From positions 32,001 to 96,000 of the IMG/VR virus record IMGVR_UViG_3300044716_000883: DNA of 64,000 bases; one strand, given 5' to 3'. Positions 35,549 to 55,693 of this stretch are shown one piece after another (the first letter of the stretch is position 1; each line of letters starts with the position of its first letter). The notes below the pieces were generated by a model, which was given only the letters and a program-made list of their open reading frames with translations, searched no databases and was not told the origin of the DNA. Origin of the DNA: a virus. The translations under genes and the position numbers were made by a program.

Positions 35549-35962
35549 ATGCCACTACCTCAAACAATACGTGTAAATCCGTTAGATTTACGTAAAAATA
35601 TTGCTATTGGGGTATCGCTACCTTTTAAAGGACCTTTTACAAGTACTTTTACTACTAAGGATCAAATTAAATCTAATTTAATCAATCTTTTACTTACTAA
35701 TAAAGGTGAAAGAATAATGAATCCTACTTTTGGATGTGATATAAAAAAACAATTATTTCAAAATATTACTACTGAATTACAACAAAAAATTATAGATATT
35801 ATTGTAGAAGCTGTTAGTATATTCATGCCTGAAATACAAGTTGGATTAATAGAAGTAGTTCCAAATACTGATTATAATCAAATAAATATAACAATATACT
35901 ATAAAATTATAATATCTAACACCCCAGGCCAAGTAACAATTCAATTTGAAACACTTAGATAA
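35549..35962 (+). CDS. baseplate wedge protein, gp25-like
   Basis: DQIKSNLINLLLTNKGERIMNPTFGCDI. Confidence 0.9.
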   Translation: MPLPQTIRVNPLDLRKNIAIGVSLPFKGPFTSTFTTKDQIKSNLINLLLTNKGERIMNPTFGCDIKKQLFQNITTELQQKIIDIIVEAVSIFMPEIQVGLIEVVPNTDYNQINITIYYKIIISNTPGQVTIQFETLR

Positions 35963-35964
35963 AA

Positions 35965-37788
35965 ATGACAAACGAAGATAAAAATATATCATATTTAAAT
36001 AAAGATTTTGGTTCCTTTAAAGCAGAATTACAACAATACGCCAAAACTTATTTTCCAACAACTTATAATGACTTTACAGAAGCCACACCAGGTAATATGT
36101 TTATTGAAATGGCATCTTACGTTGGTGATGTTATGTCATTTTATTTAGATACTCAAGTACAAGAAAATTTCTTATTATACGCTAAAGAAAAAGAAAATTT
36201 ATATGCACAAGCATATGTAATGGGTTATCGCCCTAAAGCATCTTATGCTTCAAATACTACTGTTGATATATATCAATTGGTTCCTTCTATTACTAATGGT
36301 GGTGTTACAACTCCGGATTATGCTACTTATGGAATTATAGTCCCAACAAATACATCACTCACCTCAACAACAAACGGAACTAAATTTTTAACTACACAAC
36401 AAGTTGATTTTACAGACACTGGTAGTACTGAAATTACTTTTGTAGACTCTAACTATTATCTACTCAAAAAATCAGTTCCTGCTATATCAGCAGAAATAAA
36501 AGAAACTACAATTAATGTAGGTACAAATCAAAAATTTGCTACTACAACTATTACTGACGATAATATATTACAAATATTAAATGTTACTGGTAGTATGGGT
36601 AATCAGTGGTATGAAGTTCCTTATTTAGCACAATCATCTATTTTTCAACAAATAGCTAATCCATCATACAATACCGATCAGGTTCCCTATTTATTGCAAT
36701 TACAAAGAGCCCCTAGACGTTTTGTTTCTAGAATATTATCAGACAATACCTTACAATTAGAATTTGGAGCTGGTTTATCTATAAATAAAACTGATACTCA
36801 AATAATTCCAACTCCATCTAATATTCAAGCGGGTATTGTACCTGGTATTTCATTATTAACAAATAATTACAATGAAGCTGGTACTTTCTTTACTCAAGAA
36901 TATGGTTTAGTACCTAATGGTGATTTAATAGTAAAGTATTTAGTTGGTGGTGGTATTACATCAAATGTACCTGCTAATGATTTAACTACTATAGATACAA
37001 CAGGTGTAACATTTCCTGGTGGTGGTGGGGCTTTAAATGCTACTGTATTGCAAAGTATAGTATCATCAAATCCAAATCCATCTTCGGGTGGGAGAAATGG
37101 AGATACAGTTGATGAAATTAGACAAAACGCTTTATATGCTTATTCAACTCAATTAAGAGCTGTAACTAAAGATGATTATATAGTAAGAGCAATGTCAATG
37201 CCTGCTGATTATGGTACTGTAGCTAAAGCATATATTTCACAAGATTTAAATACAAATCCTCAAGAAACGGTAGCCTACACAAGTCCCTTTAATCCACTAG
37301 CTTTAGATCTATATATTTTATCATATAATAGTGATAAACAATTAACTACAGCAGTACCAACATTAAAACAAAATTTAGTAACTTATCTTAATCAATATAG
37401 AATGGTTACTGATGCTATTAATATTAAAGATGCATATTATATCAATATTGGACTTAACTTTGATATTATTATATTGAGTGGATATTCTAATAAAGATGTA
37501 ATAACTAATTGTATAACTACATTAAAAGACCATTTTAATACAGATAAATGGCAAATTAACCAACCAATTATCATTTCAGATATTACTTCTAAATTATTAC
37601 AAGTTAAAGGCGTTCAATCTGTAGTTAAGTTAGAAATAACAAACAAACAAGGAGGAAATTATTCTCAATACGGATATGATATTGCTGGGGCTACTAAAAG
37701 TGGAAATATTTACCCTTCATTAGATCCAGCTATATTTGAAATTAGATTCCCTGATGTTGATATACAAGGTAGAGTAGTAGTAAGTTAA
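35965..37788 (+). CDS. baseplate wedge protein, gp6/baseplate-J-like
   Basis: YNDF.EATPGNMFIEMASYVGDVMSFYLD; SGGRNGDTVDEIR...QLRAVTKDDY. Confidence 0.88.
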   Translation: MTNEDKNISYLNKDFGSFKAELQQYAKTYFPTTYNDFTEATPGNMFIEMASYVGDVMSFYLDTQVQENFLLYAKEKENLYAQAYVMGYRPKASYASNTTVDIYQLVPSITNGGVTTPDYATYGIIVPTNTSLTSTTNGTKFLTTQQVDFTDTGSTEITFVDSNYYLLKKSVPAISAEIKETTINVGTNQKFATTTITDDNILQILNVTGSMGNQWYEVPYLAQSSIFQQIANPSYNTDQVPYLLQLQRAPRRFVSRILSDNTLQLEFGAGLSINKTDTQIIPTPSNIQAGIVPGISLLTNNYNEAGTFFTQEYGLVPNGDLIVKYLVGGGITSNVPANDLTTIDTTGVTFPGGGGALNATVLQSIVSSNPNPSSGGRNGDTVDEIRQNALYAYSTQLRAVTKDDYIVRAMSMPADYGTVAKAYISQDLNTNPQETVAYTSPFNPLALDLYILSYNSDKQLTTAVPTLKQNLVTYLNQYRMVTDAINIKDAYYINIGLNFDIIILSGYSNKDVITNCITTLKDHFNTDKWQINQPIIISDITSKLLQVKGVQSVVKLEITNKQGGNYSQYGYDIAGATKSGNIYPSLDPAIFEIRFPDVDIQGRVVVS

Positions 37789-42800: not shown

Positions 42801-44289
42801 CCAATTCAACAACCAGCTATATTCTAATCAAAAGACTACGGATGGTGAAAAAATAATTTATAGCAGTGGATATAGTTATTCTCCACTATTATATTTTTCT
42901 ACATGTTCATCTGATCCTAAATTATCTTTCCAAAATCAAGGAAACCAATCAGCTTACTTAGCTACAGCTCAAAACTTAAGCTCATCTTTCTTTGTAAGCG
43001 GAAGTCCAATACTAGGATTCCCAGTAACAATGAGTGCAGGTATTGGAGGAACTAATGCTGTTGTTAATATATTTAACAATGCAATCAATACACCTTCTAC
43101 ACCAGTACAGTATTACTACCCAGGAGCTTTAAATCATGTACCTACATACTCAGCTCAAGAAACAGGACAATATAGAGTAAATGCTTCTGTGGGTATGAAT
43201 ATTACTATGGCTGATGGTGCTCATGCTACTTGGAGTTTAGAAATGTATAAAAATGGCACTTTAGCAGCTAGTTCAACTCAACAAATGTATTTTGGGAATG
43301 TAATAGGGGATTGTTTCGGGTATGATGTTACAAACAATACTCCATCTACCAACTTTGTTATTAGTTATCCCTTATGTGCTGATGGAACAACACAAAACAT
43401 AAGCCTACCCCCAGGCACTACTGTTCCTATATGCTCTAGGTCATACCCTATAGTAAGAAGAAGTTCTGGAGACCCAGCAAGTCCTGCAGAAGTTACTGTA
43501 TTAAATGTTCTTACACCATGTGATACTTACACAGTTTCTGTGGGAACTACTCAAAATGTAAACTTTAATATTGATAAAGGAACTAATAATACTGATTATA
43601 TTTCTCTTACAGGTGGAACAGGATTAACTGGGGATAAATTATATTTCCAATTAAGACTATTAGGTATAAGTAGCGACAACTATACTGCTTCTCTTACTCC
43701 TAGTAATTTATCTGTTGGATCTTTAGCACTAAGTACTGGATATTCTGTTACAAACTGCCCTTATATAACCGGTTCAACTTCTACTTCAATTACATTTACT
43801 AATTCATTATCTAATTTTTACAATGGTGGGTACTTATTCACACCAAACCCAGTATCCGGTTCTAAAAACAGTTTATATGGAACTTATTTCGATGTAGATT
43901 ATACATTTGATCCTAAAGAAAACGATATAGTTGTTTTACATTTATCTGATAGTAGTGTTTTAGAATATGTTATTAGTAAATTAAGTGTAAATCCAACAAC
44001 AAATGAATTAACATTGCATTTTAATGAAGAGTTATCATTATCAACTATATATGATTTAACAAATAATAATTATAGAAGATTTTTATTACTATCAAGAAGA
44101 AAAGATGAAACTAACGTTGTATTAAACTTTGTTAGACGTAATGGTAAATCATCAAATGGGTTCTTAATACCTGAAAATATTAGTCAAACCGTATTGAACA
44201 ATATTGATGTAATAACTAAAGAAGTAAAGCAAAAAATACTTGGAGATCAACCAATAATTAATGACCTTAATGGTGGAACTTTTCCTTAA
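39880..44289 (+). CDS. large baseplate/tail structural protein (1469 aa)
   Basis: N/S/T-rich; YKRIYHNLP.LLKTKGT.YGL..L wedge-type motif; Cys-containing insert near the C-terminus. Confidence 0.65.
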   Translation: MADNIKIVGNILSEQQVPRYDAADVNLLATQTIQEDFGLTNDYIEYFVYDAGENLLNTNYTYRDFKAPSTSYVNPKNNGLPIIEIDPVKDLQNLGYRSGEFRVQYNLFTNKISNSDAELFLKEISADRTELRVGSTILTNEQIESGSLELINEYTNSPYFVDYLLNFSNNTQVVVVNVALNKVESGYEILFKLYHPLPDNIQEKSTLWVVQEKSNPYSFDINLDTLIIQAPGPKLRGPNFNIDIPNQNNIATSYQNYTSLVNSIQNVSTSSYQQLLSLITSQSIDINVDYTNFTNFSFFGSAKQRVINFYGKVKQIEDYNNLIVSYIPNVSTIGNLALEISSSKNAINTIISQFDGYEQYLYFESSSYAWPKTTTTTPYALATTASAQTWYSALTGSAEVYDENNQNNLSFTLPSFIKDDEDNDPYITFLNMVGHYFDNIWIFLQAITDINLANNNLEKGVSKDLVYNVLQSLGVKLYNQYGDSNNINFLVGVSGSSNWDNNFTSTGSYLNAIPRKDLLAESYKRIYHNLPLLLKTKGTAYGLQTLVSTFGITGSVLQIKEYGGDIKSGLLDEFNNDKIRIVSNTVTGSVLSPFISLQQQPTSSTQFRTNDLHYVDISFSPQDKIDIFTSASIAVASPTWSLDDFIGDPRFQYNQIYPTLETERTIYLSPLTASIVPYTGSLASGSIGATDYNSFIRLIQFFDNSLFKMLKDYVPARTSLSTGITISSPILERNKWVFANPSSTSEIEVEDGTINGPSIQTEYTDLYQGINYDNKVAYYDGNLTGSGINVHSYFVSGNINPYLSNIAVWNAQNPISESIDLNKFAHSDYNVMLNNVSKSLTSRNRQDIEYIFGTTQSIISPVELQDSYESLKTHQLSRYDGVKISSLKYNTYTSASSTYEGDTSFGKTATIDKNVVKLGLFSEITENVYLPKRNNAILKYLVDIDGNLTELNLRNTHWEEIQNTFIAGDTGSISQFNNQLYSNQKTTDGEKIIYSSGYSYSPLLYFSTCSSDPKLSFQNQGNQSAYLATAQNLSSSFFVSGSPILGFPVTMSAGIGGTNAVVNIFNNAINTPSTPVQYYYPGALNHVPTYSAQETGQYRVNASVGMNITMADGAHATWSLEMYKNGTLAASSTQQMYFGNVIGDCFGYDVTNNTPSTNFVISYPLCADGTTQNISLPPGTTVPICSRSYPIVRRSSGDPASPAEVTVLNVLTPCDTYTVSVGTTQNVNFNIDKGTNNTDYISLTGGTGLTGDKLYFQLRLLGISSDNYTASLTPSNLSVGSLALSTGYSVTNCPYITGSTSTSITFTNSLSNFYNGGYLFTPNPVSGSKNSLYGTYFDVDYTFDPKENDIVVLHLSDSSVLEYVISKLSVNPTTNELTLHFNEELSLSTIYDLTNNNYRRFLLLSRRKDETNVVLNFVRRNGKSSNGFLIPENISQTVLNNIDVITKEVKQKILGDQPIINDLNGGTFP

Positions 44290-44350
44290 TAGTCCCTAAT
44301 AATAAAATTTTAATTTAACATATTTATTAGTATATACAACATAAAGAATT

Positions 44351-45013
44351 ATGGCAATTTTAAATCCTACGACAGTAACTGTAGATGCAATATTAACCAC
44401 GAAGGGCCGCGAATTATTGGCTCGTAACGACGGTTCATTCCAAATTACTCAATTCGCATTAGCTGATGATGAGATTGATTATACTTTGTATAACCCAAAT
44501 CACCCATCAGGATCTGCGTTCTATGGTGAAGCAATTGAAAACACTCCTGTGTTAGAAGCTTTCCCTAACGAATCACAAATTATGCGTTACAAATTAGTAA
44601 CTTTACCTCGTGGTACATCTAAATTACCAGTTATTAACTTAGGTTATAACAGTATTATATTACGTCAAGGTGCTTCATTAACAATTACTCCACAAACCTT
44701 AAATTATTTAGGTTCTACAAGTACATTTGAAGCAAATGGTTACACAGCTACAATTGCTGATTCTCGTTTAGTATCTTCATTTACAGGTACAGGTATTACT
44801 TCAACAACACCACCTGCAGGATTAAACACAACTACAGGAACTGTATTATCAGTAACTCAAATTGGTACTTCATTCACGTTAACAGGTACAACAATTAATA
44901 CATTATTTGGTTCTACTTTAACTTCATTAGCTACTACAATCACTGTGATTGGTAGAGATAGTGGTGCAAGAGTTACTATTCCTCTTAATATTCAAAAAGT
45001 ATCATCAATCTAA
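44351..45013 (+). CDS. tail/baseplate protein (tail-collar-fibre N-terminal-like)
   Basis: VDAILTTKGRELLAR..FQITQFALADDEIDY. Confidence 0.6.
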   Translation: MAILNPTTVTVDAILTTKGRELLARNDGSFQITQFALADDEIDYTLYNPNHPSGSAFYGEAIENTPVLEAFPNESQIMRYKLVTLPRGTSKLPVINLGYNSIILRQGASLTITPQTLNYLGSTSTFEANGYTATIADSRLVSSFTGTGITSTTPPAGLNTTTGTVLSVTQIGTSFTLTGTTINTLFGSTLTSLATTITVIGRDSGARVTIPLNIQKVSSI

Positions 45014-45021
45014 TTTAACAT

Positions 45022-46023
45022 ATGTCATTTTCAAGATATAACACCGAAGATTCAGTAATCAGTTCAGAAACCGTAGTTAGAGGTTTATGGGGTGGAGATA
45101 ATAATTCTCTATCTACATTTTTTACCCAAAGTGGATACACTGAATATTATCTAGATGTATACAATGGAGATCCTTCAATATCAGGTTCTTCAGTACAGTT
45201 TTCAATTCAATATGGTAACCTAAATGGATCTGGATCTAATTTAATTAATCCTAATATCCCATTAGGTGGATATACTCCATCTCGTGTAGTATATGGTGAA
45301 TATAGAAATTTAGTTTACGGAACTGAAACCACAAACTTTAGCTTTGATAATGGTGCAACAACCGCAAATGATATATTTGTAATTAATGTTGCTCGTTCTC
45401 GTTATAAAGAATCTTTATTACCTAGTTCATTTAATTTAACCTTAGGAAGTGGTAGTAATACAGTTAGATTAACTGATGATAGCGGAACTACAAGTTTAAC
45501 TCGTTTTATTGGTGAAAATAAAGTATATTATGTTATTAGCGGAAGTAATGGTAATGCATATACCCCAGCTGCTTCATCTTCATATTACGGAATGGTATTT
45601 CCTGATTTAGATATTATTGTATTAAATGCTTCTGCATCATCAACAGTATCTTTAACTAATGTATTTGCTCCATTAGCTCAAACTACATCTTCAGCTAATT
45701 ATAATGCCATTAAATTATATAATTCGATTGTTAGTGGATCTTCAACATTCCCTTTTCAATTAAAATCATCTGAAACTGTTTCTTCAAGATATTTCTTTAC
45801 AAGAGTAAAAAATAGTGAGTTTAACTATACTTCAAATCCATCTATTATAGATGCAAATGGCAACTTATTATACACAACTTTAATTAACAATCCTCAAACA
45901 TACGTTACAACAGTAGGTATGTATAATGATAATAATGAGTTGTTAGCAGTAGCTAAATTAAGTAAACCATTAACTAAAGACTTTACTAAAGAAGCTCTAA
46001 TTAGAATCAAACTAGACTATTAA
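45022..46023 (+). CDS. tail/baseplate protein with tail-collar-like C-terminus
   Basis: YVTTVGMYNDNNELLAVAKLSKPL.KDF..EALIRIKLDY. Confidence 0.65.
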   Translation: MSFSRYNTEDSVISSETVVRGLWGGDNNSLSTFFTQSGYTEYYLDVYNGDPSISGSSVQFSIQYGNLNGSGSNLINPNIPLGGYTPSRVVYGEYRNLVYGTETTNFSFDNGATTANDIFVINVARSRYKESLLPSSFNLTLGSGSNTVRLTDDSGTTSLTRFIGENKVYYVISGSNGNAYTPAASSSYYGMVFPDLDIIVLNASASSTVSLTNVFAPLAQTTSSANYNAIKLYNSIVSGSSTFPFQLKSSETVSSRYFFTRVKNSEFNYTSNPSIIDANGNLLYTTLINNPQTYVTTVGMYNDNNELLAVAKLSKPLTKDFTKEALIRIKLDY

Positions 46024-46026
46024 TGC

Positions 46027-47541
46027 ATGTCTTCATTCAAAAAGTTAAGCAAATCAGACGTTACAGTAGTACCTTACCATGCTAATAAGCAATGGATACT
46101 GGATTATTGCCCATACCCTACATCATCTGACTATTTAACTATTTATAAAGGCACAAACCTTACTGGGAGTTTTTCTTTAGATGACGATCCCGTTACTGAA
46201 AATCAATATGAAAGACTAGTCTATAATCAAATCAACCAGTTATTCTATCAAGATTATACTACTTCTTTAGATACTAGTTCGTTAATGCTTTCACTTAACA
46301 ACTACGAATCTGCATCGCAGCAAAGACCAACTTCATCTTATTTTGTATATAACGACAATAAGAATTTAATTACCCTCTTCCCTACAGGTACTATGGAAGG
46401 AATCCGTGTGTTAGCTGTTAATCAAGACATTTATGGTAATAAAGTATTACCAAACCACTTTATCTTATCTTCATCTGCATATTATGTAACTGATGATGGT
46501 TTTGGTAATTTATATGATACAAAATCTACAAAAAAGCATATTGGAAATATGTTTTATGCTCATGGAATAGGAATTATAACTGACCCAGATTATCAATTAA
46601 TGTTTCCTTTACCTCCATTAGCTAAAAATGATATTGCTTATTTTCTAAATACTGATTTTCCTAAAACTATCTCTCCATTAATTAATGACGATCCTAGAGG
46701 AGGAACATTAGTACCTAGTACTTTAACTTTATCTGGTAGTGCAGCTGATTTAGTATTTTGGACTAATAACGGTGATGGAACTGTTACTCTAAATTCATCA
46801 GTTGTCGGGACATATGTAATTTATTATACTGTGGAATCTAGTTATGATTGTGGTAATATTCCAAGTAATAAAGCTAAAATAGCAGTAAATGTAAGTATAA
46901 CATTAACACCAACCACAACAACTAGTACTTCTACATCTACATCAACAAGTACTTCGACGAGTACATCTACTTCAACATCGACATCAACAAGTACATCGAC
47001 ATCAACAAGTACATCTACTTCTACAAGTACTTCAACATCGACAAGTACTTCAACATCGACAAGTACTTCAACGAGTACTTCAACATCAACATCAACAAGT
47101 ACATCGACATCAACAAGTACTAGTACAACAACTAGTACAACAACTGCTCCTCCAATAATATTATCTATAGCTTATGTTGATGCAGCAGGAAATATAAGAT
47201 TAGAAGGAAATTCAGCAACTACTTTAACTGAAAATATTGAATTTCAAGTAATTAGAAGTGTTAGTCATGCTTATACATCACTAAATTGTGGAGCAGGGGA
47301 AATATCACAAAGTAATTTCTTTACAGCACAAACAACAACAATATTTTCTGGTAATACTACAGGACAAAGTGTTGATATATTCTCTACAGGAACTGTTCAA
47401 ACAACTAAAATAGATTCAGTAACAATACTTTGGTCAGATTCATCATCAACTGCCGTACCAAATAATAACACTACTGTCACATCACCAGTAACAGGAAAGA
47501 ATTATAAAATAACTAATATTGATACTTGTACTCCTATTTAA
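46027..47541 (+). CDS. structural protein with Ig/cadherin-like domain and ~80-aa (Thr-Ser)n mucin-like tract
   Basis: HIGNMFYAHGIGIIT; PLAKND..INDD..TNNGDGTV..YTV Ig-like; TSTS tract encoded about 46905-47145. Confidence 0.7.
   Translation: MSSFKKLSKSDVTVVPYHANKQWILDYCPYPTSSDYLTIYKGTNLTGSFSLDDDPVTENQYERLVYNQINQLFYQDYTTSLDTSSLMLSLNNYESASQQRPTSSYFVYNDNKNLITLFPTGTMEGIRVLAVNQDIYGNKVLPNHFILSSSAYYVTDDGFGNLYDTKSTKKHIGNMFYAHGIGIITDPDYQLMFPLPPLAKNDIAYFLNTDFPKTISPLINDDPRGGTLVPSTLTLSGSAADLVFWTNNGDGTVTLNSSVVGTYVIYYTVESSYDCGNIPSNKAKIAVNVSITLTPTTTTSTSTSTSTSTSTSTSTSTSTSTSTSTSTSTSTSTSTSTSTSTSTSTSTSTSTSTSTSTSTSTSTSTSTTTSTTTAPPIILSIAYVDAAGNIRLEGNSATTLTENIEFQVIRSVSHAYTSLNCGAGEISQSNFFTAQTTTIFSGNTTGQSVDIFSTGTVQTTKIDSVTILWSDSSSTAVPNNNTTVTSPVTGKNYKITNIDTCTPI
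46905..47145 (+). repeat. Thr-Ser dipeptide repeat, synonymously diversified
   Basis: ACA/ACT/ACG alternating with TCA/TCT/TCG/AGT. Confidence 0.9.
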
Positions 47542-47584
47542 TAAAAAATTTGGAGTCATAAATTAGGATAATTATATTATAGTT

Positions 47585-48526
47585 ATGAAAAATTTACGTT
47601 ATATTTGCGTTCAACCTCGTCTGATATATTATGCCTGGCAAGTAGAAGTTATGATTAATAACTTTATTAAAAATGGAATCAGTGGTAATAATATTGATAT
47701 TCTAGTTGCTTGGAACTCCAATGACGATACTAATACCCCAGAAGTAATAGAAGCTTGGAATAAATTAGCTAATACATACAATTATGTTAGATTCTTCTTC
47801 TATGAAGATACTAGAGAAGATATGAATTATATTCCTTCTATTTACTTTAATATATTAAAACAACACATTAAGGCCCACCCAGAACTAATAGACCAACCTC
47901 TATTTTTACACGATTCTGATATCTTATTTACAAAACCAGTTGATTTTAGCAGTATGCTAAATGATAAAATTTGGTATTTAAGTGATACTGTTGGTTATAT
48001 TGGAACTCAATATGTTTTAACAAAAGGTGAAGATGTTTATAAAGGAATGTGTAATATAATAGGAATTGATCCTTTAATACCTAAACTATTAAATTCAAAT
48101 TCTGGGGGTGCTCAACATATTGTTAAAGGTTCTACTTATGAATATTGGGATAAAGTAGAAAAAGATTCAATTAGATTATATAGATGGTTTTGTGAACAAG
48201 AACCTTTATGGAAGGGTGAAGGATATCCAATTCAAAAGTGGACTGCAGGTATGTGGTCACTATTATGGAATGCTTGGTTATTTGGTAATGAAACTAAAGT
48301 AGATAAAAGATTAGATTTTTGTTGGGCAACTGACCCTATTAATGGATGGAATAATGTATCAATATTCCATAATGCTGGTGTGACAGAACATGGTAAGTTA
48401 TTTATGAAGGGTAATTATATTAATTCATATCCATATGGCATAGAAAACACGTTTGATTCTAATTTTTGTTCATATAACTATGTTAATGAAATTATAGAAA
48501 CTTCTAAAAAAACATGTTTAATATGA
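47585..48526 (+). CDS. putative GT-A glycosyltransferase (peptide-O-glycosyltransferase-like, tentative)
   Basis: YYAWQVEVMINNF; LFLHDSDILF (DxD); KWTAGMWSLLWNAW; IFHNAGV. Confidence 0.6.
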   Translation: MKNLRYICVQPRLIYYAWQVEVMINNFIKNGISGNNIDILVAWNSNDDTNTPEVIEAWNKLANTYNYVRFFFYEDTREDMNYIPSIYFNILKQHIKAHPELIDQPLFLHDSDILFTKPVDFSSMLNDKIWYLSDTVGYIGTQYVLTKGEDVYKGMCNIIGIDPLIPKLLNSNSGGAQHIVKGSTYEYWDKVEKDSIRLYRWFCEQEPLWKGEGYPIQKWTAGMWSLLWNAWLFGNETKVDKRLDFCWATDPINGWNNVSIFHNAGVTEHGKLFMKGNYINSYPYGIENTFDSNFCSYNYVNEIIETSKKTCLI

Positions 48527-49263
48527 TTTTACCAAAAATATCTTGTATATGTCCTACCTTTTCCAGGGCATATCTGTTGGAAGAAGCTCTTGAATCTTTC
48601 TTAAAACAAGATTACCAAGGAGAAAAAGAATTAATAATATATAATGATTTCTCCCAACAAGAATTTATATTTGAACACCCAGAAGTAAAAATAATTAACT
48701 CATTAGAAAGATCCCCTAATTTAGGACACAAATGGAATGTAACTTATAGTTATGCTACTGGAGAATATTTACTAACATGGGGGGATGATGATATTTACTT
48801 ACCAGGCAGAATAAGTAGAATGGTTAACAATTTAAATCAGTCTGATTTTTTATATGAAGGTCCATTTTATATACTCTACGGAGATGTTCTTTACAAAAAA
48901 CCAAATCAAACACAAGGAGCAAATATAGTTTCAAGAAAATTATTTGATGCAGTAGGAGGAGTACCAGAAAAAAATACAGGAGAAGATGCCGCTTTTAATA
49001 ATAGAATAGCAGAGTATTTAGGTAAACCCCTTGATGTTTGTAAAGATGAACCACAATTTCTATATAGGTGGTCATCACCAAGAAATCATATATCTCAATT
49101 TGGAGAAGATAAAGAAGGTGAAATCACCAGTTATCAAAGAATGTTAGAAGCAGCAAATATATACATTGAATCCGGTAAAGAGCCTAAAGGTACTTATCAT
49201 TTAAATCCTCATTGGAAATTAAATTGGGTAGAAGAGGTAAAAACTGCTACTTTAGAACCCTAA
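48523..49263 (+). CDS. glycosyltransferase family 2
   Basis: ISCICPTF.R..LLEEALESFLKQDY..ELIIYND; TGEYLLTWGDDDIYLP. Confidence 0.88.
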   Translation: MILPKISCICPTFSRAYLLEEALESFLKQDYQGEKELIIYNDFSQQEFIFEHPEVKIINSLERSPNLGHKWNVTYSYATGEYLLTWGDDDIYLPGRISRMVNNLNQSDFLYEGPFYILYGDVLYKKPNQTQGANIVSRKLFDAVGGVPEKNTGEDAAFNNRIAEYLGKPLDVCKDEPQFLYRWSSPRNHISQFGEDKEGEITSYQRMLEAANIYIESGKEPKGTYHLNPHWKLNWVEEVKTATLEP

Positions 49264-49272
49264 CTAAAAAAT

Positions 49273-49755
49273 ATGAACTACATTCACCCTACAGCTCTGG
49301 TTGAATCTAATGTAATAATTGAAGAAGATGTTTATATTGGACCTTATTGTATAATCGGATTTCCACCTGAATGGAAAAAAAGAGAAGACGAAGGTAAGGG
49401 TGTATTGATTAAAAAAGGAACTAGATTAACTGGATTTGTAACAGTAGATGCAGGTGCAGAAAGAAGAACTGAAATAGGTGAAAATTGCTATATAATGAAA
49501 TATGGTTATGTTGCTCATGATTGTATACTAGGAAATAATGTAACAATGAGTGCTGGCTCAAAATTAGCAGGCTTCTGCTATATTTCTGAAAATGTAAATC
49601 TAGGAATGGGAGTTGCTATCCATCAAAAATCAACAATACCCCCAGGAGTGATGATAGGAATGAATGGAGTAGTAACTAAACAAAGTAAATTATTACCTAA
49701 TCAAAAATATGTGGGTATACCTGTTAAACATATAGGAAGTAATGAAAGACATTAA
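49273..49755 (+). CDS. hexapeptide-repeat (left-handed beta-helix) acyltransferase, LpxA/NeuD-like
   Basis: IHPTALV..VYIGPYCIIG; TEIGENCYI..VAHDCILGNNV. Confidence 0.85.
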   Translation: MNYIHPTALVESNVIIEEDVYIGPYCIIGFPPEWKKREDEGKGVLIKKGTRLTGFVTVDAGAERRTEIGENCYIMKYGYVAHDCILGNNVTMSAGSKLAGFCYISENVNLGMGVAIHQKSTIPPGVMIGMNGVVTKQSKLLPNQKYVGIPVKHIGSNERH

Positions 49756-49775
49756 AATTATAGATATTTATAACC

Positions 49776-50084
49776 ATGCCAGTAACACACACAGGACCAT
49801 TCACCATACTATTTAAAAATGAACATACCATCTACGAAAATGAAATTCGTTGTTTGGTAAAGGAAAGTGATTACAACTTATCATACAACCCAACATTAGT
49901 GTCAGGTAGCTATGAAAGTGGATCCTTAAAGAATTTTGCTACTGCTTCTACTTTCTATACTTACGCTACAACAATAGGTTTGTATGATGATGACAATCAA
50001 CTATTAGCTGTTGCTAAATTGGGTAAACCAATTATGATGTCACCTGATACAGATATGACGTTCGTAGTTAAGTATGATGAATAA
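49776..50084 (+). CDS. tail-collar-like C-terminal module protein
   Basis: YATTIGLYDDDNQLLAVAKLGKPI paralogous to the C-terminus of 45022-46023. Confidence 0.65.
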   Translation: MPVTHTGPFTILFKNEHTIYENEIRCLVKESDYNLSYNPTLVSGSYESGSLKNFATASTFYTYATTIGLYDDDNQLLAVAKLGKPIMMSPDTDMTFVVKYDE

Positions 50085-50098
50085 AATAAATTTTAGTT

Positions 50099-50542
50099 AT
50101 GTTACAAACATCTAATCCTCTTTATGTTGAGGATTTAATAAATGATCCCAATTTTAATATTGATGACTACTGTGGTTATGTCTATATGACTTGTCATGAT
50201 TTAACAGGTCGTAGATACATTGGTAAAAAAGTATTTCATCACACCACTACTAAAAAATTAGGCAAGAAAGAACTAACTGAAATTCCAGTTACCAGAGGTA
50301 AACGCCCATCTAAAAAAACAGTAGTTAAGGAAAGTGATTGGAAAACATATTATGGTTCCAATACTGAAGTAAAGTCATTACCTAAAGACGAAATGACTCG
50401 TATCGTATTGCGTTTATGCAAAACAAAAAAAGAACTAACATACTACGAAACAAAATTCCTATTTGATTATAACGTGTTGGAAAATGACACTTATATGAAC
50501 GATAATATATTAGGTAAATTCTATCGAAAAGACTTGTTATAG
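50099..50542 (+). CDS. GIY-YIG family endonuclease
   Basis: GYVY...RRYIGKK; SDWKTYYGS; LTYYE. Confidence 0.75.
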   Translation: MLQTSNPLYVEDLINDPNFNIDDYCGYVYMTCHDLTGRRYIGKKVFHHTTTKKLGKKELTEIPVTRGKRPSKKTVVKESDWKTYYGSNTEVKSLPKDEMTRIVLRLCKTKKELTYYETKFLFDYNVLENDTYMNDNILGKFYRKDLL

Positions 50543-50569
50543 GCAAAATAGAGTCGTACATTCGAGGTT

Positions 50570-51520
50570 ATGGATAATACAGCTTTACTATTTCTAACTG
50601 AATCGGTGCTAGGCAAGGGACAATCTACAAGCAAAGGTAACTATGCTTTTAAGTGTCCATTCTGTACTCACCACAAAAATAAGATGGAAATTAGCATGCG
50701 CACAACGGAAAAGAAAGAAAATTTCTGGCATTGTTGGGTGTGTGGGGCTAAAGGCAAAACATTACTATCCTTATTCAAGAAAATCAAAGCACCAGCTGCT
50801 AAAATAGCAGAATTGAACATATTAGTAGTACCTAATAAAGCACATCAGCAAACTGAAAAAGGTGCTCTTGAACTACCTAAAGAGTTTATTGCGTTTGATG
50901 ATCACGAAAAATTTATAACTGATAGAGTTGCTCAAATCGAATCAAAACACGCTCTTAGATTTTTAAGAAGAAGAGGTATTACTGTAGACGATATTACAAA
51001 ATACAATATAGGCTTTTGTAAGGACGGAAAATACGGCGGTAGAGTAATTATACCATCATTTGATGAATTAGGAAAACTTAATTATTTTATAGCTAGAGAT
51101 TACAAAGACGAAGCTAGTCAAAAATATAAAAATCCTCCTGTTGCCTCTAAAGAGATTATAGGCTGGGAGTTATTCATAAATTGGGATGCACCAATTATAC
51201 TTGTTGAAGGTATTTTTGATGCTCTAACTATCAAACGAAACGTCATTCCTTTGTTTGGTAAGGTATTGCACGATAAACTAATGCAAAAGTTAGTTATGTC
51301 TTCTGTTAATAGAATTTATATTGCTTTAGACCAAGACGCAAGACGAGATGCTTTAAAACAAGCAGAAAAACTTATGTCATATGGTAAAGAAGTATACATG
51401 GTAGAATTAGAAGGTAAAGACGCTAATGAAATTGGTTTTGAAGCATTTTTAAACACAATTGAGCAAACACAACCACTGACATTTCAGAGTTTGCTTGAGA
51501 AAAAATTACAATTAATATGA
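50570..51520 (+). CDS. DNA primase (zinc finger + TOPRIM)
   Basis: CPFC..WHCWVC; VIIPSF..YFIAR; ILVEGIFDA; ALDQDA; KDANE. Confidence 0.92.
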   Translation: MDNTALLFLTESVLGKGQSTSKGNYAFKCPFCTHHKNKMEISMRTTEKKENFWHCWVCGAKGKTLLSLFKKIKAPAAKIAELNILVVPNKAHQQTEKGALELPKEFIAFDDHEKFITDRVAQIESKHALRFLRRRGITVDDITKYNIGFCKDGKYGGRVIIPSFDELGKLNYFIARDYKDEASQKYKNPPVASKEIIGWELFINWDAPIILVEGIFDALTIKRNVIPLFGKVLHDKLMQKLVMSSVNRIYIALDQDARRDALKQAEKLMSYGKEVYMVELEGKDANEIGFEAFLNTIEQTQPLTFQSLLEKKLQLI

Positions 51521-52299
51521 TTGACAAAAATTCAAACATTATAAAAGATCCTAAAATCAAGCGTATTGTAGAATACAAAGAAGGGGATAAACAAGTAAAT
51601 GTTTTAGATTCTAGATTTTACAGACGTAAAGAAGAATATTACCCATCAGTAACATCTGTTTTAAATTATTTTCCTAAAAATCAATTCTTCCATTCTTGGT
51701 TGAAAGATGTAGGACATAACAGTGATATTATTGCTGCTAAAGCAGCTGGTGAAGGTACTCAAGTACATAATGCTGTAGATGCTTTCTTAAACGGACAAGA
51801 AATTACTTGGATTGATGAACACGGAAATGCTAAGTACAATTTAGATGTTTGGAGAATGATTTTACGTTTTGCTGATTTCTGGAATACACATAAACCAGAA
51901 TTAATTGCAACTGAATATCATTTATTCTCAGACGAACACAAATATGCTGGTACAGCGGATTTAGTTGTTAGATTATTTGATAACATTTGGTTATTAGATC
52001 TTAAGACATCAAATTCACTTCATACGAGCTATGATTTGCAATTAGCTGCTTATGCTCAAGCATGGAATGAAACACATGATGAGAAAGTAACTCACACAGG
52101 TATCTTATGGGTTAAAGCAAATACTCGTGGAGAAGGAAAGAATGGAAAGATACAGGGTAAAGGATGGGAATTAAAGTTCGTAAATGAAATTGATAAGAAC
52201 TTTGACATGTTTAAGAAAATATATGACATATACAAGTTAGAAAACCCTGATTTCAAGCCTATGACTGAATTATTACCCACATCAGTCAAAATTTCTTAA
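51517..52299 (+). CDS. PD-(D/E)XK exonuclease (Cas4/RecB-like)
   Basis: YPSVTSVL; GTQVH; YAGTAD; LDLKTS; QLAAYA. Confidence 0.85.
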   Translation: MIDKNSNIIKDPKIKRIVEYKEGDKQVNVLDSRFYRRKEEYYPSVTSVLNYFPKNQFFHSWLKDVGHNSDIIAAKAAGEGTQVHNAVDAFLNGQEITWIDEHGNAKYNLDVWRMILRFADFWNTHKPELIATEYHLFSDEHKYAGTADLVVRLFDNIWLLDLKTSNSLHTSYDLQLAAYAQAWNETHDEKVTHTGILWVKANTRGEGKNGKIQGKGWELKFVNEIDKNFDMFKKIYDIYKLENPDFKPMTELLPTSVKIS

Positions 52300-52370
52300 T
52301 ATATTTATGCTTGAAAACCAAAAGTTTTTATATTGTTACACAAATATTACAAGATTGTAAATAACGATTT

Positions 52371-52402
52371 GAGCGGGGATATTGTCTCCGCTCTTTTTTT
52401 TT
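52371..52402 (+). terminator. terminator-like hairpin in the leader of the TonB-dependent transporter gene
   Basis: GAGCGGGGA-TATTG-TCTCCGCTC plus T run. Confidence 0.7.
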
Positions 52403-52420
52403 AACCAAAACAAAACACAA

Positions 52421-55400
52421 ATGAAAAAAGCGATTTTATCGTTACTTCTTTCTGCACTATTTTTAGTGGGATTTGGTCAGGTTACCACATCCTCTATCTC
52501 TGGTGTTGTTAAGAATGAAAAGCAAGAAGTACTAGCAGGTACCGTTGTAGAAGCAATTCACGTTCCTACAGGTACAAAGTACAAGACCGTTGCAAACAAG
52601 AATGGTGTTTATGTGTTACCTGCTGTTAGAGTAGGTGGTCCATATGTAATCCATGCTTCGTTTGTAGGATTTAAAAAGAGTGAAGAAACAGATGTAAACG
52701 CTCAATTGGGTGTTACTACAAACGTTGACTTTGCTTTAGTGGATGAGAAATCAACTCTTAAAGAAGTAGTTGTGACTGGAACAAAATCTGTTTTATTTTC
52801 TAAAGAAAAAACAGGTGCTGCTCAACAATTTGGAAGAAGAGAATTAACTACTATTCCAATTACAGGTGCTAGAACAATTGATGGTATTACCAAGTACAAC
52901 CCATTTGGTAATGGTAACTCATTTGGCGCACAAGACTCTCGTTTGAACAACTTCACAATCGATGGTTCTCAATTTAACAACAACTTCGGTTTAGGTTCTT
53001 CAGCAGCAGCAGGTGGCCGTACAGGCGCTTCAGCAATTTCACTTGACGCGATTGATCAATTACAAGTTAACGTAGCACCATTTGACATTCGTCAATCTGG
53101 ATTTACAGGTGCTGGTATTAACGCTGTAACAAGATCAGGTACAAATGAAATTGAAGGATCCGTTTATCAAACACAACGTGATAATTCATCTCGTTATGTA
53201 GGTGATAACGCTAGAGGAACAAAAGTAACTGCATCTAAATTTGATGAAAAAGTACAAGGTTTTAGATTAGGTTTACCTGTTATTAAAAACAAATTATTTT
53301 TGTTTGGTAACTATGAAGGTATTACAAGAACTGAACCTGGTACAACTTGGATTTCAGCAGGATCACCACTTACAGGTACTCAAGTATCTCGTGTGAAATA
53401 TTCTGACATGGATGCTTTATCTAAATTCATGAAAGAAAAATTTGATTATACAACTGGTCCTTGGGAAGGTTACTCAAATCAGAATTCATCAAATAAATTT
53501 TTGATTCGTGCTGACTGGAATATTAACGACAAAAATAAATTAACTGCTCGTTATGTTCACCATAATTCATCTGCTGAAATTAACGTTTCAAACTCTCAAT
53601 CAGCAGGTGCTGGTAATAGAACAACTCAATTCAATGCTATGAGTTTCCAAAATAGTGGTTACATTATTATGGATAACACTCGTTCAGCAGTATTAGAATT
53701 GAACTCTAAAATCTCTAACACTTTACACAATAGTTTAATCGTTTCTTACGATAAGCAAATTGAAGATAGAGCTTATATGAGTAACATATTCCCAACTATT
53801 GATATCAGAGACGGTTCAGCAACTTACACTTCTGTAGGTTTCGATCCATTTACTCCAGATAACAAATTAGATTATTGGACACTTAATGTTACTAACAACT
53901 TAACTAAGTATTTAGGTAAACATACAGTAGTTGGTGGTTTTAACTTCCAACAATACCAATCTAATAACTTATTCTTCCCAGCATCTAATGGTGTTTATAT
54001 CTTCAATAGTTTGAATGACTTCTACACTGCCGCTAACCAATCATTAGCTAATGGTGGTCGTCCATCAACATTTGCTCCTGCTCGTTTCCAATTTAGATAC
54101 TCAGCATTACCTAGTGGAGCTGCACCAATGCAAACTTTAGAATCTTATAGAACCGATTTATATTTACAAGATGAATATAACGTAAATAAGAATTTAAAGT
54201 TAACTGCTGGTATTAGAGCAAATATTATTTCAATTAACAACACAGCATTAGAAAATAAAGCAGTAACTGCTATGACTTTTGCTAATGGTGAAAAATGGAA
54301 TACAGGTGTAATGCCTGAAACACAGTTATTATTCGAACCTCGTTTCGGATTTAACTGGGATGTAAAAGGTGAAAAGAAAACACAAGTTAGAGGTGGTACT
54401 GGTATTTTTACTGGTCGTCCTCCTTATGTATTCTTATCTAACCAAATTGGTAATACAGGTGTATTATCAGGATTTATTGATGTATCAGGTGCAGCAGCTG
54501 CTAATTATGGCTTTACTGCTAACCCAAATCAATACTTTATTCCTTCAACACCAACTTTACCATCTACATTTGATTTAGCTTTAACAGATGCTAATTATAA
54601 GTTTCCTCAAGTTTGGAAAAATAACTTAGCTGTTGATCAAAAATTACCTTGGTTAGGTTTAATTGCTAGTGTTGAATTATTATACAATAGAACTTTAAAT
54701 GCAGTTCATTATTACAACGCTAACTTAGATGCTCCTGTTGGTAAATTAGGTGGTGTTGATCAAAGACCACTTTATGCAGGTAATGATAACGGTGTTCGTG
54801 TAAACGATAACGTTTCAATGGCTGCAGTATTAACTAATAGAAATGGTGCCTTTAACAAATCAGCAACATTTAAATTAGAAAAACCAGCATCTAAAGGTAT
54901 TTGGGGTTATGTAGCTTATACAGCTGCAGACGCACAAGACTTTATGGACGCAGGTTCAATTGCTAGTGGTTCTTGGCAATCAGCATTATCAGTTAATGGT
55001 AATAATGATTTAGGTTTAACAACTTCATCATTTGTAGTTAGAAATCGTATCGTAGGTTTATTAGGATACCGTTTAGACTATGGTAAGAAATATGGTGGTG
55101 CTACTACATTCACATTAGGATATGTAGGTTCACAAAACAATCCATTCTCTTATATCGTAGCAGGTGACTTAAATGGTGACAGAGTAAATAATAATGATTT
55201 AGTATTTGTACCAAATAAAGCATCAGACATTCGTTTTGCATCTTTAACAGTAGGTACAACAGTTTATACTGAAGCTCAACAACAAGAAGCTTTTGATAAA
55301 TTCATTGATCAAGATCCTTACTTATCAACTCGCAGAGGTCAATATGCTGAAAGAAATGCAATTGCATTACCTTTCCTACATAGATTTGACTTATCAGTTG

Positions 55401-55693
55401 CTCAAGATTTCTTTGTAAAGATTAAAGGTAAGCGCAATGCTTTCCAAATTAGAGCTGATATCTTGAACTTTGGTAATATGTTAAATAATAATTGGGGTGT
55501 ATCTCAACGTGCAGGTGCTCCACAATTGTTGAACTTTGTAAGCCGCGACGCTGCAGGTGTTCCAACATACAGATTATCAACACAGAGAGATGCTACAAGT
55601 ACTTTCTTAGCAAGAGACACATATCAATTCAACTCATCAGTATTTGATGTATGGACTGCTCAATTAGGTATTCGTTACACTTTCGGTAAGTAA
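52421..55693 (+). CDS. TonB-dependent outer-membrane transporter (Oar-like, carboxypeptidase-regulatory-like N-domain)
   Basis: Signal peptide; GVVKNE..GVYVLPAVRVGGPY; LKEVVVTG; NNFTIDG..plug; INAVTRSGTN; terminal QLGIRYTF. Confidence 0.92.
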   Translation: MKKAILSLLLSALFLVGFGQVTTSSISGVVKNEKQEVLAGTVVEAIHVPTGTKYKTVANKNGVYVLPAVRVGGPYVIHASFVGFKKSEETDVNAQLGVTTNVDFALVDEKSTLKEVVVTGTKSVLFSKEKTGAAQQFGRRELTTIPITGARTIDGITKYNPFGNGNSFGAQDSRLNNFTIDGSQFNNNFGLGSSAAAGGRTGASAISLDAIDQLQVNVAPFDIRQSGFTGAGINAVTRSGTNEIEGSVYQTQRDNSSRYVGDNARGTKVTASKFDEKVQGFRLGLPVIKNKLFLFGNYEGITRTEPGTTWISAGSPLTGTQVSRVKYSDMDALSKFMKEKFDYTTGPWEGYSNQNSSNKFLIRADWNINDKNKLTARYVHHNSSAEINVSNSQSAGAGNRTTQFNAMSFQNSGYIIMDNTRSAVLELNSKISNTLHNSLIVSYDKQIEDRAYMSNIFPTIDIRDGSATYTSVGFDPFTPDNKLDYWTLNVTNNLTKYLGKHTVVGGFNFQQYQSNNLFFPASNGVYIFNSLNDFYTAANQSLANGGRPSTFAPARFQFRYSALPSGAAPMQTLESYRTDLYLQDEYNVNKNLKLTAGIRANIISINNTALENKAVTAMTFANGEKWNTGVMPETQLLFEPRFGFNWDVKGEKKTQVRGGTGIFTGRPPYVFLSNQIGNTGVLSGFIDVSGAAAANYGFTANPNQYFIPSTPTLPSTFDLALTDANYKFPQVWKNNLAVDQKLPWLGLIASVELLYNRTLNAVHYYNANLDAPVGKLGGVDQRPLYAGNDNGVRVNDNVSMAAVLTNRNGAFNKSATFKLEKPASKGIWGYVAYTAADAQDFMDAGSIASGSWQSALSVNGNNDLGLTTSSFVVRNRIVGLLGYRLDYGKKYGGATTFTLGYVGSQNNPFSYIVAGDLNGDRVNNNDLVFVPNKASDIRFASLTVGTTVYTEAQQQEAFDKFIDQDPYLSTRRGQYAERNAIALPFLHRFDLSVAQDFFVKIKGKRNAFQIRADILNFGNMLNNNWGVSQRAGAPQLLNFVSRDAAGVPTYRLSTQRDATSTFLARDTYQFNSSVFDVWTAQLGIRYTFGK

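Follow-up and report, generated by a model that had tools for sequence, protein, structure and literature searches.

To our knowledge, glycosylation of phage particles by the phage's own enzymes has been shown experimentally in mycobacteriophages only. In plants and algae, sugar chains are started directly on repetitive, extended protein segments rich in Ser and hydroxyproline (Hyp) by the HPAT enzymes (hydroxyproline O-arabinosyltransferases, GT95, PF23452) and by SGT1 (peptidyl-serine alpha-galactosyltransferase, GT96). Virion glycosylation encoded by the phage itself is established for the mycobacteriophages Che8 (gp108-110), Corndog (gp38) and Myrna (Freeman et al. 2023, Cell Host Microbe 31:1216, as cited in PMC12363180 and PMC12619734). 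Here we describe a locus in a 64,000-nucleotide stretch of viral DNA (the window, bases 32001-96000 of the IMG/VR record IMGVR_UViG_3300044716_000883) in which a gene for a protein with a long run of Thr and Ser residues (46027-47541, the tract protein) is followed by a glycosyltransferase gene (47585-48526, the first enzyme), a second glycosyltransferase gene of the GT2 type (48514-49263) and an acyltransferase gene (49273-49755). All coordinates are those of the window unless stated otherwise.

We consider it likely, with a probability of roughly 70%, that this locus encodes a cytoplasmic O-glycosylation system for the Thr/Ser stalk of the tract protein, which a GT8-like first enzyme would initiate, the GT2 would extend and the hexapeptide transferase would decorate. 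An earlier note on this DNA had interpreted it as a glycosylation system, which is partly supported, as the genomic evidence for an enzyme-tract system is strong. The phage thus probably sugar-coats the fibre that bears the tract, as far as can be judged from sequence. All four open reading frames (ORFs) that the earlier note described are present on the + strand, and they are indeed arranged in overlapping or adjacent frames: 43 nt separate the tract gene from the first enzyme, the first two enzymes overlap by 13 nt, and gaps of 9 nt and 20 nt follow.

We selected 80 IMG/VR viral contigs for the presence of a first-enzyme homologue alone and searched them for tracts, defined as at least 10 Ser/Thr residues at a density of 80% or higher, encoded on the same strand within 3 kb of the enzyme gene. 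Among the loci with enough flanking sequence to be testable (63 upstream and 62 downstream), a tract was found upstream of the enzyme in 52 of 63 and downstream of it in 1 of 62. After collapsing the enzymes at 80% identity, the difference was still marked, with 33 of 41 loci upstream versus 1 of 38 downstream (Fisher 2e-13). The tracts in these enzyme-anchored loci consist mostly of Thr (3247 T to 836 S), and the tract-bearing proteins, once their tracts are masked, fall into at least 12 homology groups.

We also looked at the pair from an anchor that is independent of the enzyme, namely the conserved neighbour gene at 45022-46023. For the 44 loci with at least 5 kb downstream of a homologue of this gene a fixed 5-kb interval was adopted; a slot defined by the orphan C-domain gene described below had recovered 14 loci only. 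Enzyme and tract were both present in 4 of the 44 loci and both absent from the other 40, while no locus was mixed (Fisher 7e-6). The anchor identities of the positive loci are 87, 80, 73 and 46%, and negative loci lie among them at 75, 74, 71 and 70%. Since positives are interleaved with negatives, the tract-enzyme pair has been gained or lost more than once.

The same association was found in each of the seven cultured phages that we examined, whose hosts belong to the Bacillota, Actinomycetota and Bacteroidota: in all of them the enzyme gene lies in the structural module beside poly-Thr-tagged proteins. In Enterococcus phage phiFL1A, poly-Thr is carried by gp45, the probable capsid protein, and by the major tail protein, whose gene is directly followed by that of the enzyme; in Lactobacillus phage iLp84 it is carried by the capsid protein, the major tail protein and a small protein encoded after the capsid protein. 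The major tail protein is tagged in Enterococcus phage VPE25, the product of the gene preceding the enzyme in Clostridium phage phiCTP1, and two proteins encoded just upstream of the enzyme in Chryseobacterium phage MA9V-3. For both Arcanobacterium phage TPWB06 and Staphylococcus phage vB-SscS-F1, poly-Thr is found on the tail protein and also on a small ORF that overlaps its gene or adjoins it. Together, these data indicate that the linkage of the first-enzyme family to Thr/Ser tracts is tight, directional and phylum-spanning.

As a separate observation, the small poly-Thr-rich ORF of TPWB06 (L087:5720-5926) is read in a different frame from the major tail protein gene, whose end it overlaps, in the manner of the frameshift extensions known from tail-tube genes, and an equivalent poly-Thr ORF is found in the Staphylococcus phage (L088:5563-5925).

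In the locus under study, the acceptor proposed for glycosylation is part of a 504-amino-acid (aa) protein. In the ORF at 46027-47541, 78 consecutive residues are either Thr (43) or Ser (35) (aa 296-373, 46912-47145), so the tract of alternating Thr and Ser that the earlier note had put at about 80 residues holds by direct count. It is by far the longest Ser/Thr run of the whole 179-kb genome, in which runs of at least 12 such residues occur in two further ORFs only, one of them a doubtful minus-strand ORF. The run is written with eight kinds of codons (ACA 28, ACT 12, ACG 2, ACC 1, AGT 13, TCA 11, TCG 6 and TCT 5), and its Ser codons are drawn from both the AGY and the TCN boxes. The synonymous variety from which selection on the protein had been proposed is therefore real. 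However, Tandem Repeats Finder resolves the DNA of the run into 8 copies of an 18-nt unit with 80% match, and this periodicity implies that the run is partly a DNA tandem array grown by duplication, and not only the outcome of codon drift under protein-level selection.

The sole other plus-strand ORF with a run of at least 12 residues (13 residues, near aa 32-44) is L173:1535-2245 (genome 5535-6245). It encodes 236 aa without a Pfam family match, adjoins a DNA-polymerase-like gene and may be a second acceptor.

Four parts can be distinguished along the tract protein. The N-terminal domain (aa 1-195, 46027-46611) is conserved in 25 homologues and was modelled with a predicted local distance difference test score (pLDDT) of about 80-90 over aa 30-195. 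The homologues of the tract protein span 176 to 1055 aa, and the N-domain is their only common part; this domain probably provides the attachment to baseplate or fibre. Next comes a predicted cadherin/Ig-like beta-sandwich (aa 194-294, 46606-46908; pLDDT 92-96), whose model superimposes on cadherin and protocadherin EC domains (VIA-align) with Z scores of 9-10 and a root-mean-square deviation (rmsd) of 2.4-2.6 over about 92 residues. In the structure comparison this cadherin-like domain was the only part of the tract protein to give matches, none being found for the N-domain model. The Thr/Ser run itself, the proposed O-glycosylation acceptor and stalk, is predicted to be disordered (pLDDT 30-40), and the C-terminal distal domain (aa 374-504, 47146-47541) was modelled with a pLDDT below 50 and no predicted fold. 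The sole full-length homologue of the tract protein, distal domain included, is that of L024/L089, with 75% identity over the whole protein.

Comparison with relatives that have no cassette suggests how this arrangement arose. In six of them (L096, L097, L099, L103, L106 and L127) and in gene 165 of Flavobacterium phage vB_FspM_immuto (immuto35A_165), the neighbour gene is followed by a single gene of 300-357 aa. The N-terminal part of this unsplit gene is homologous to the N-domain, corresponding to about aa 1-190 of the ORF at 46027-47541, and its C-terminal ~90-110 aa correspond to a separate + strand ORF of 102 aa at 49776-50084, directly after our cassette. This orphan C-terminal domain is 80% identical to aa 221-308 of the 309-aa unsplit gene of L106 (E 1e-52) and 39% identical to the C-terminus of immuto35A_165 (E 7e-24). 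Between the two parts, the phage studied here has the cadherin-like domain, the Thr/Ser run, the distal domain, a stop codon and the three enzyme genes. On these homologies, the stalk and the enzymes interrupt a structural gene whose C-domain survives as the ORF at 49776-50084. Moreover, enzyme-free relatives with a long form of the gene (L092, L093, L100, L113, L130 and L143) have Pro/Thr/Ala linkers of the TPTA, TAAPT or TPS type where the run sits, which suggests the same spacer role, and enzyme-bearing relatives have nearly pure Thr/Ser runs at the same gene position.

Upstream of the orphan C-domain ORF, a TATTTATA box (49765-49772) ends 4 nt before the ATG. The same TATTTATA sequence is found on the + strand 2-30 nt before many starts, with about ten other sites, for instance at 1323, 15352, 32340, 38426, 55709, 58505 and 60681, and it may be a late-promoter-like box. 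For the TATAAATA motif octamer, the window as a whole shows no enrichment, with 22 matches versus 18 expected.

The first enzyme (47585-48526, + strand, 313 aa) is predicted to be a soluble, GT8-like glycosyltransferase of the GT-A type with a DxD motif. It matches phrog_4417 (2.5e-67), a family annotated as function unknown, and every named member of the first-enzyme family is labelled hypothetical. This family comprises 1534 clusters at 90% identity (E up to 0.001) and 837 clusters at 50% identity. The DxD motif (D110-S-D112) lies within LHDSDILF, and a second motif, WTAGMW, occupies aa 219-224; in an alignment of 52 homologues, D112, M223, W224 and H262 do not vary, and conservation is at least 90% for D110 and W219. 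Neither a Pfam family (E up to 0.1) nor an NCBIfam model matched the first enzyme, no PDB match was found by single sequence or by family profile, and Glyco_transf_8 was absent among the Pfam families matched by its 52 relatives. TALE-repeat matches that came up in the PDB profile search were discarded as repeat artefacts.

We then compared structures, using an AlphaFold2 model built with the 52-member alignment (pLDDT 96.9). The best fold match is glycogenin (1ll0_A; Z 15.8, rmsd 3.2, 226 residues aligned), followed by LgtC (1g9r; Z 15.6), Skp1 alpha-galactosyltransferase (Z 15.0), WbbM (Z 14.9), the catalytic domain of UGGT (GT24; Z 14.7), LARGE1 (Z 14.0) and GlyE of the pneumococcal serine-rich-repeat adhesin pathway (5gvw; Z 13.9). 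Overall, the GT8-like matches have an rmsd of 3.2-3.6 over 210-235 residues, with a sequence identity of just 7-10%. Among predicted viral structures, the closest named one is Orf49 of Lactobacillus phage LP65 (template-modelling score 0.74), before GT8-type proteins of giant viruses. By its modelled fold, but not by sequence membership, the first enzyme therefore belongs with the GT8-like retaining GT-A enzymes. The earlier description of it as a DxD GT-A enzyme is thus confirmed, both by the conservation of DxD in the 52 homologues and by GT-A fold matches of up to Z 15.8.

Long homologues of the first enzyme are fusions with GT2, GT6, GT25-like, DXD sugar-binding, radical SAM/SPASM or methyltransferase domains. 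In some cases, L032:10954-11985 and P0122 among them, the family member has a radical SAM/SPASM enzyme after it or fused to it instead of more glycosyltransferases, which hints at a different modification chemistry in these phages; the L032 locus has no Thr/Ser tract.

The second enzyme (48514-49263, + strand) is a GT2 glycosyltransferase, as had been claimed, since it matches PF00535 (Glycos_transf_2) over aa 10-133 with an E value of 1.4e-12 and 48.3 bits, above the cut-off of 23.3. The third (49273-49755, + strand) is an acyl- or acetyltransferase with hexapeptide repeats, which form a left-handed beta-helix; it matches Pfam Hexapep in three stretches (68.7 bits against a cut-off of 27; E 2.2e-19). 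The earlier note had called it LpxA/NeuD-like. The protein does match both models, but below their NCBIfam cut-offs, with 96 bits (2e-27) against 226 for LpxA and 76.7 bits (1.7e-21) against 160.8 for NeuD. We propose that it decorates a sugar or modifies the nucleoside diphosphate (NDP)-sugar donor. No transmembrane segment and no signal peptide were found in any of the three enzymes.

GT2 and acyltransferase are swappable accessories, and not conserved partners of the first enzyme. Homologues of the GT2 are weak (27-31% identity) and lie 3' of the GT-A gene in 6 of the 80 enzyme-anchored loci, four of which (L007, L016, L018 and L025) are the same slot in related phages; no homologue of the acyltransferase was found in roughly 160 related loci. 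Hence the co-occurrence of tract and cassette that had been put forward as a test came out strongly positive for the first enzyme on the counts given above (52/63; 4 with both and 40 with neither), but not for the GT2 (6/80) or the acyltransferase (0). In relatives, the slot 3' of the first enzyme is either empty or occupied by a GT6, Gly_transf_sug, GT2, GT2-methyltransferase fusion, TOD1/MUCI70-like, radical SAM/SPASM or methyltransferase gene. The closest relative (L024/L089, IMGVR_UViG_3300032268_000694) has flanking genes 87-97% identical to those of our phage and a first enzyme that is only 56% identical, and it has a GT6-like gene and a second unidentified gene in place of the GT2 and the acyltransferase. 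Flanks so similar around an enzyme so divergent, together with the differing accessories, indicate that the enzyme set is exchanged faster than the rest of the genome, and the comparison points to cassette replacement. Four points are specific to this locus: a stalk in which Thr and Ser alternate, a host gene split in two, an acyltransferase unique to it and evidence that the cassette is exchanged.

The source record is a viral genome of 179,381 bp with direct terminal repeats, rated complete, and nearly all of its genes are on the + strand. Megablast of positions 44000-52300 against cultured phages gave no match. Through the neighbour gene (45022-46023, + strand, 333 aa; alignment A2), the closest cultured relative is Flavobacterium phage vB_FspM_immuto, a 160-kb myovirus whose immuto35A_164 is 47% identical to this protein, and the phage appears from its genes to be a large, Flavobacterium-type myovirus. 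The neighbour gene is a conserved paralogue whose C-terminus resembles the orphan C-domain ORF. Upstream, 35549-35962 and 35965-37788 gave baseplate-wedge matches in the PHROG search; in immuto, genes with the annotations tail fibre and tail spike come after the equivalent slot; and 3' of the cassette lie genes for a GIY-YIG endonuclease, a primase and an exonuclease. From these three observations we place the cassette at the distal end of a baseplate/fibre block. The cassette thus belongs to the tail gene block, as the earlier note had it, but lies at its end and not in its middle.

Some neighbouring genes deserve mention on their own. The endonuclease gene (50099-50542), directly after the cassette and the orphan domain, encodes a SegE-like GIY-YIG homing endonuclease (PF19835, 6.6e-25); its position is kept in relatives, and it could promote exchange of the adjoining cassette. 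At 52382-55693, an ORF of 1103 aa has a signal-peptide-like N-terminus and the look of a TonB-dependent receptor within a lytic-type phage genome, and an NCBIfam search with it gave no family at E up to 0.01. Furthermore, a nucleotide-sugar or polysaccharide-type gene cluster lies at about 1620-14875 of L172 (genome 14001-32000, directly upstream of the window). It contains two GT1-type and two GT2 glycosyltransferases, a DegT/DnrJ aminotransferase, two NAD-dependent epimerase/dehydratases, a hexapeptide acetyltransferase and methyltransferases. Unusual sugar donors for the fibre cassette could come from this cluster, or it could have a different function.

If the stalk is glycosylated as we propose, the first enzyme would use an NDP-sugar and a metal bound by D110 and D112, probably with the invariant H262, and would transfer a first sugar onto Thr/Ser residues of the 78-residue tract in the protein encoded directly upstream; a retaining (alpha) linkage is expected because of the GT8-like fold. 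The GT2 would then lengthen the sugar chain, and the hexapeptide transferase would acylate or acetylate a sugar or its nucleotide donor. The outcome would be a stiff, protease-resistant "bottle-brush" stalk that holds the cadherin-like and distal domains off the baseplate. The absence of membrane and signal segments in the three enzymes fits the modification of virion parts assembled in the cytoplasm, and a stiff, extended stalk agrees with the Pro-rich linkers that take the place of the run in enzyme-free relatives.

Several points weigh against this reading. The co-occurrence statistics take the loci without phylogenetic correction, the tract protein is placed in the virion by its gene position and by annotations in relatives, and GT8-like folds also serve enzymes of lipopolysaccharide (LPS; LgtC) and polysaccharide (WbbM). 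In addition, the enzyme lacks a nearby tract above threshold in about one locus in six, which means that tracts may not be the sole possible acceptor or that the acceptor may lie elsewhere in the genome. Thus, L010, L028 and L032 have an N-domain-only gene of 176-191 aa without a tract before the enzyme; L069 also lacks a tract by threshold, yet it has a Thr-rich stretch just below it. Loci of this kind would be easier to understand if the run were a mere flexible linker and the three enzymes altered a glycan of the host surface during infection, be it LPS, capsule or a glycoprotein of the host; such a change might, for instance, block superinfection or affect adsorption. GT2 enzymes and hexapeptide acyltransferases are characteristic of polysaccharide loci, the fold matches include LgtC (Z 15.6) and WbbM (Z 14.9), and the genome has the separate polysaccharide-type cluster mentioned above. 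Nevertheless, we hold modification of a host glycan to be improbable, since it leaves three things unexplained: in 52 of 63 loci the enzyme gene comes directly after a tract, with the opposite order almost absent; tract and enzyme have been acquired and lost jointly; and in siphophages the enzyme gene has capsid genes on one side and tail genes on the other, with poly-Thr tags at the ends of the proteins that these encode. Also, none of the three enzymes is membrane-anchored.

The tract-less loci L010, L028 and L032, which keep the enzyme beside an N-domain-only gene, would also agree with a first enzyme that glycosylates other virion sites, such as the N-domain or neighbouring fibre proteins, the tract travelling along for another reason, for instance as part of the same mobile insertion; tract and enzymes here do look like a single inserted block. 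This is unlikely to a similar degree, because the tract-bearing neighbours in unrelated phages belong to at least 12 homology groups, capsid and tail-tube proteins included, and have the tract alone in common. Much less credible still is that the glycosyltransferases modify phage DNA by glycosylating hydroxymethyl bases, as in T-even phages, even though the phage has T4-like baseplate genes and the classical task of glycosyltransferases from phages is to glycosylate DNA (PMC12619734). No member of the thymidylate-synthase/hydroxymethylase family was found in the 179-kb genome, while control genomes gave matches, and it is for the lack of such a gene that we rate this possibility so low. The enzyme family, moreover, sits in structural modules beside Thr/Ser tracts, including those of small temperate siphophages.

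Glycosylation of the stalk could be one instance of a more general strategy. We give even odds to a wider proposal, in which poly-Thr/Ser runs are portable glycosylation tags read by one dedicated family of initiating O-glycosyltransferases, possibly distant kin of the plant enzymes that glycosylate extensins, in phages of at least three bacterial phyla. Tag, enzyme and swappable extenders would move as a block into capsid, tail-tube or fibre genes, as would have happened here to a fibre gene that was split with both halves still in use, and mucin-like coats would be common and fast-evolving. If so, an enzyme family different from that of the mycobacteriophages, and far more widespread, would perform this task in Bacteroidota, Bacillota and Actinomycetota phages, and a Thr/Ser run followed by a first-enzyme gene would be a simple signature by which virion glycosylation could be predicted from sequence alone. 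The family is present in cultured Enterococcus, Lactobacillus, Staphylococcus and Clostridium phages, in which a sugar coat could affect immune recognition, stability and adsorption, and these cultured carriers allow direct testing of the glycosylation reading. The locus also illustrates how a cassette may enter a structural gene and how enzyme sets may be exchanged between near-identical phages.

Searching full-text literature, in a coverage that left most subscription journals outside, we found no paper that links the first-enzyme family or poly-Thr tags to phage glycosylation. With the HPAT and SGT1 enzymes, to whose families GT95 and GT96 the earlier note had likened the first enzyme, the resemblance is weak: Pfam HPAT was matched by 2 of the 52 relatives (best E 1.3e-4) and by 10% of the members of one nearby ESM Atlas cluster, but not by the first enzyme itself. 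Indeed, the HPAT model (PF23452) found no match in the genome of the phage, in five related viral records or in the ten least similar family members, and no solved HPAT or SGT1 structure was among the fold matches of the first enzyme.

Glycogenin, LgtC, Skp1 alpha-galactosyltransferase and GlyE, all of GT8 type, together with the GT24 domain of UGGT, match the fold over the whole first enzyme and have in common with it the DxD motif and a conserved C-terminal His. Several of them act on proteins or glycoproteins, and GlyE, which acts on a Ser-rich repeat adhesin, is a close functional analogy. However, GlyE extends an existing glycan, whereas the first enzyme is proposed to initiate on the peptide, and the identity of 7-10% and the lack of a Glyco_transf_8 match set our enzyme apart from the GT8-type enzymes in sequence.

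In Che8-type systems, as far as the cited accounts describe them, the glycosyltransferases of the phage decorate its own structural proteins in the cytoplasm, as we propose for this locus, and their targets are the C-termini of capsid and tail-tube proteins, the very places where the poly-Thr tags of Bacillota phages carrying the first-enzyme family are found. The enzymes themselves are not detectably homologous, since Che8 gp108, gp109 and gp110 aligned with the first-enzyme family profile A1 (hhalign) at probabilities of 0.1-0.24%, and no Mycobacterium phage was among the 77 phage records with a first-enzyme homologue (tblastn). The Che8 enzymes are encoded far from the structural genes, at the opposite genome end, whereas here the enzyme gene adjoins the tract gene; and the capsid and tail-tube C-termini of Che8 have no Thr/Ser run, whereas the acceptor proposed here is a long, homopolymer-like tract. 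Finally, the tract can be compared with the Pro/Thr-rich interdomain linkers of secreted bacterial proteins and phage fibres. Enzyme-free relatives carry such linkers at its exact position, but the run described here is free of Pro and, in the neighbour-anchored loci, strictly co-occurs with a glycosyltransferase.

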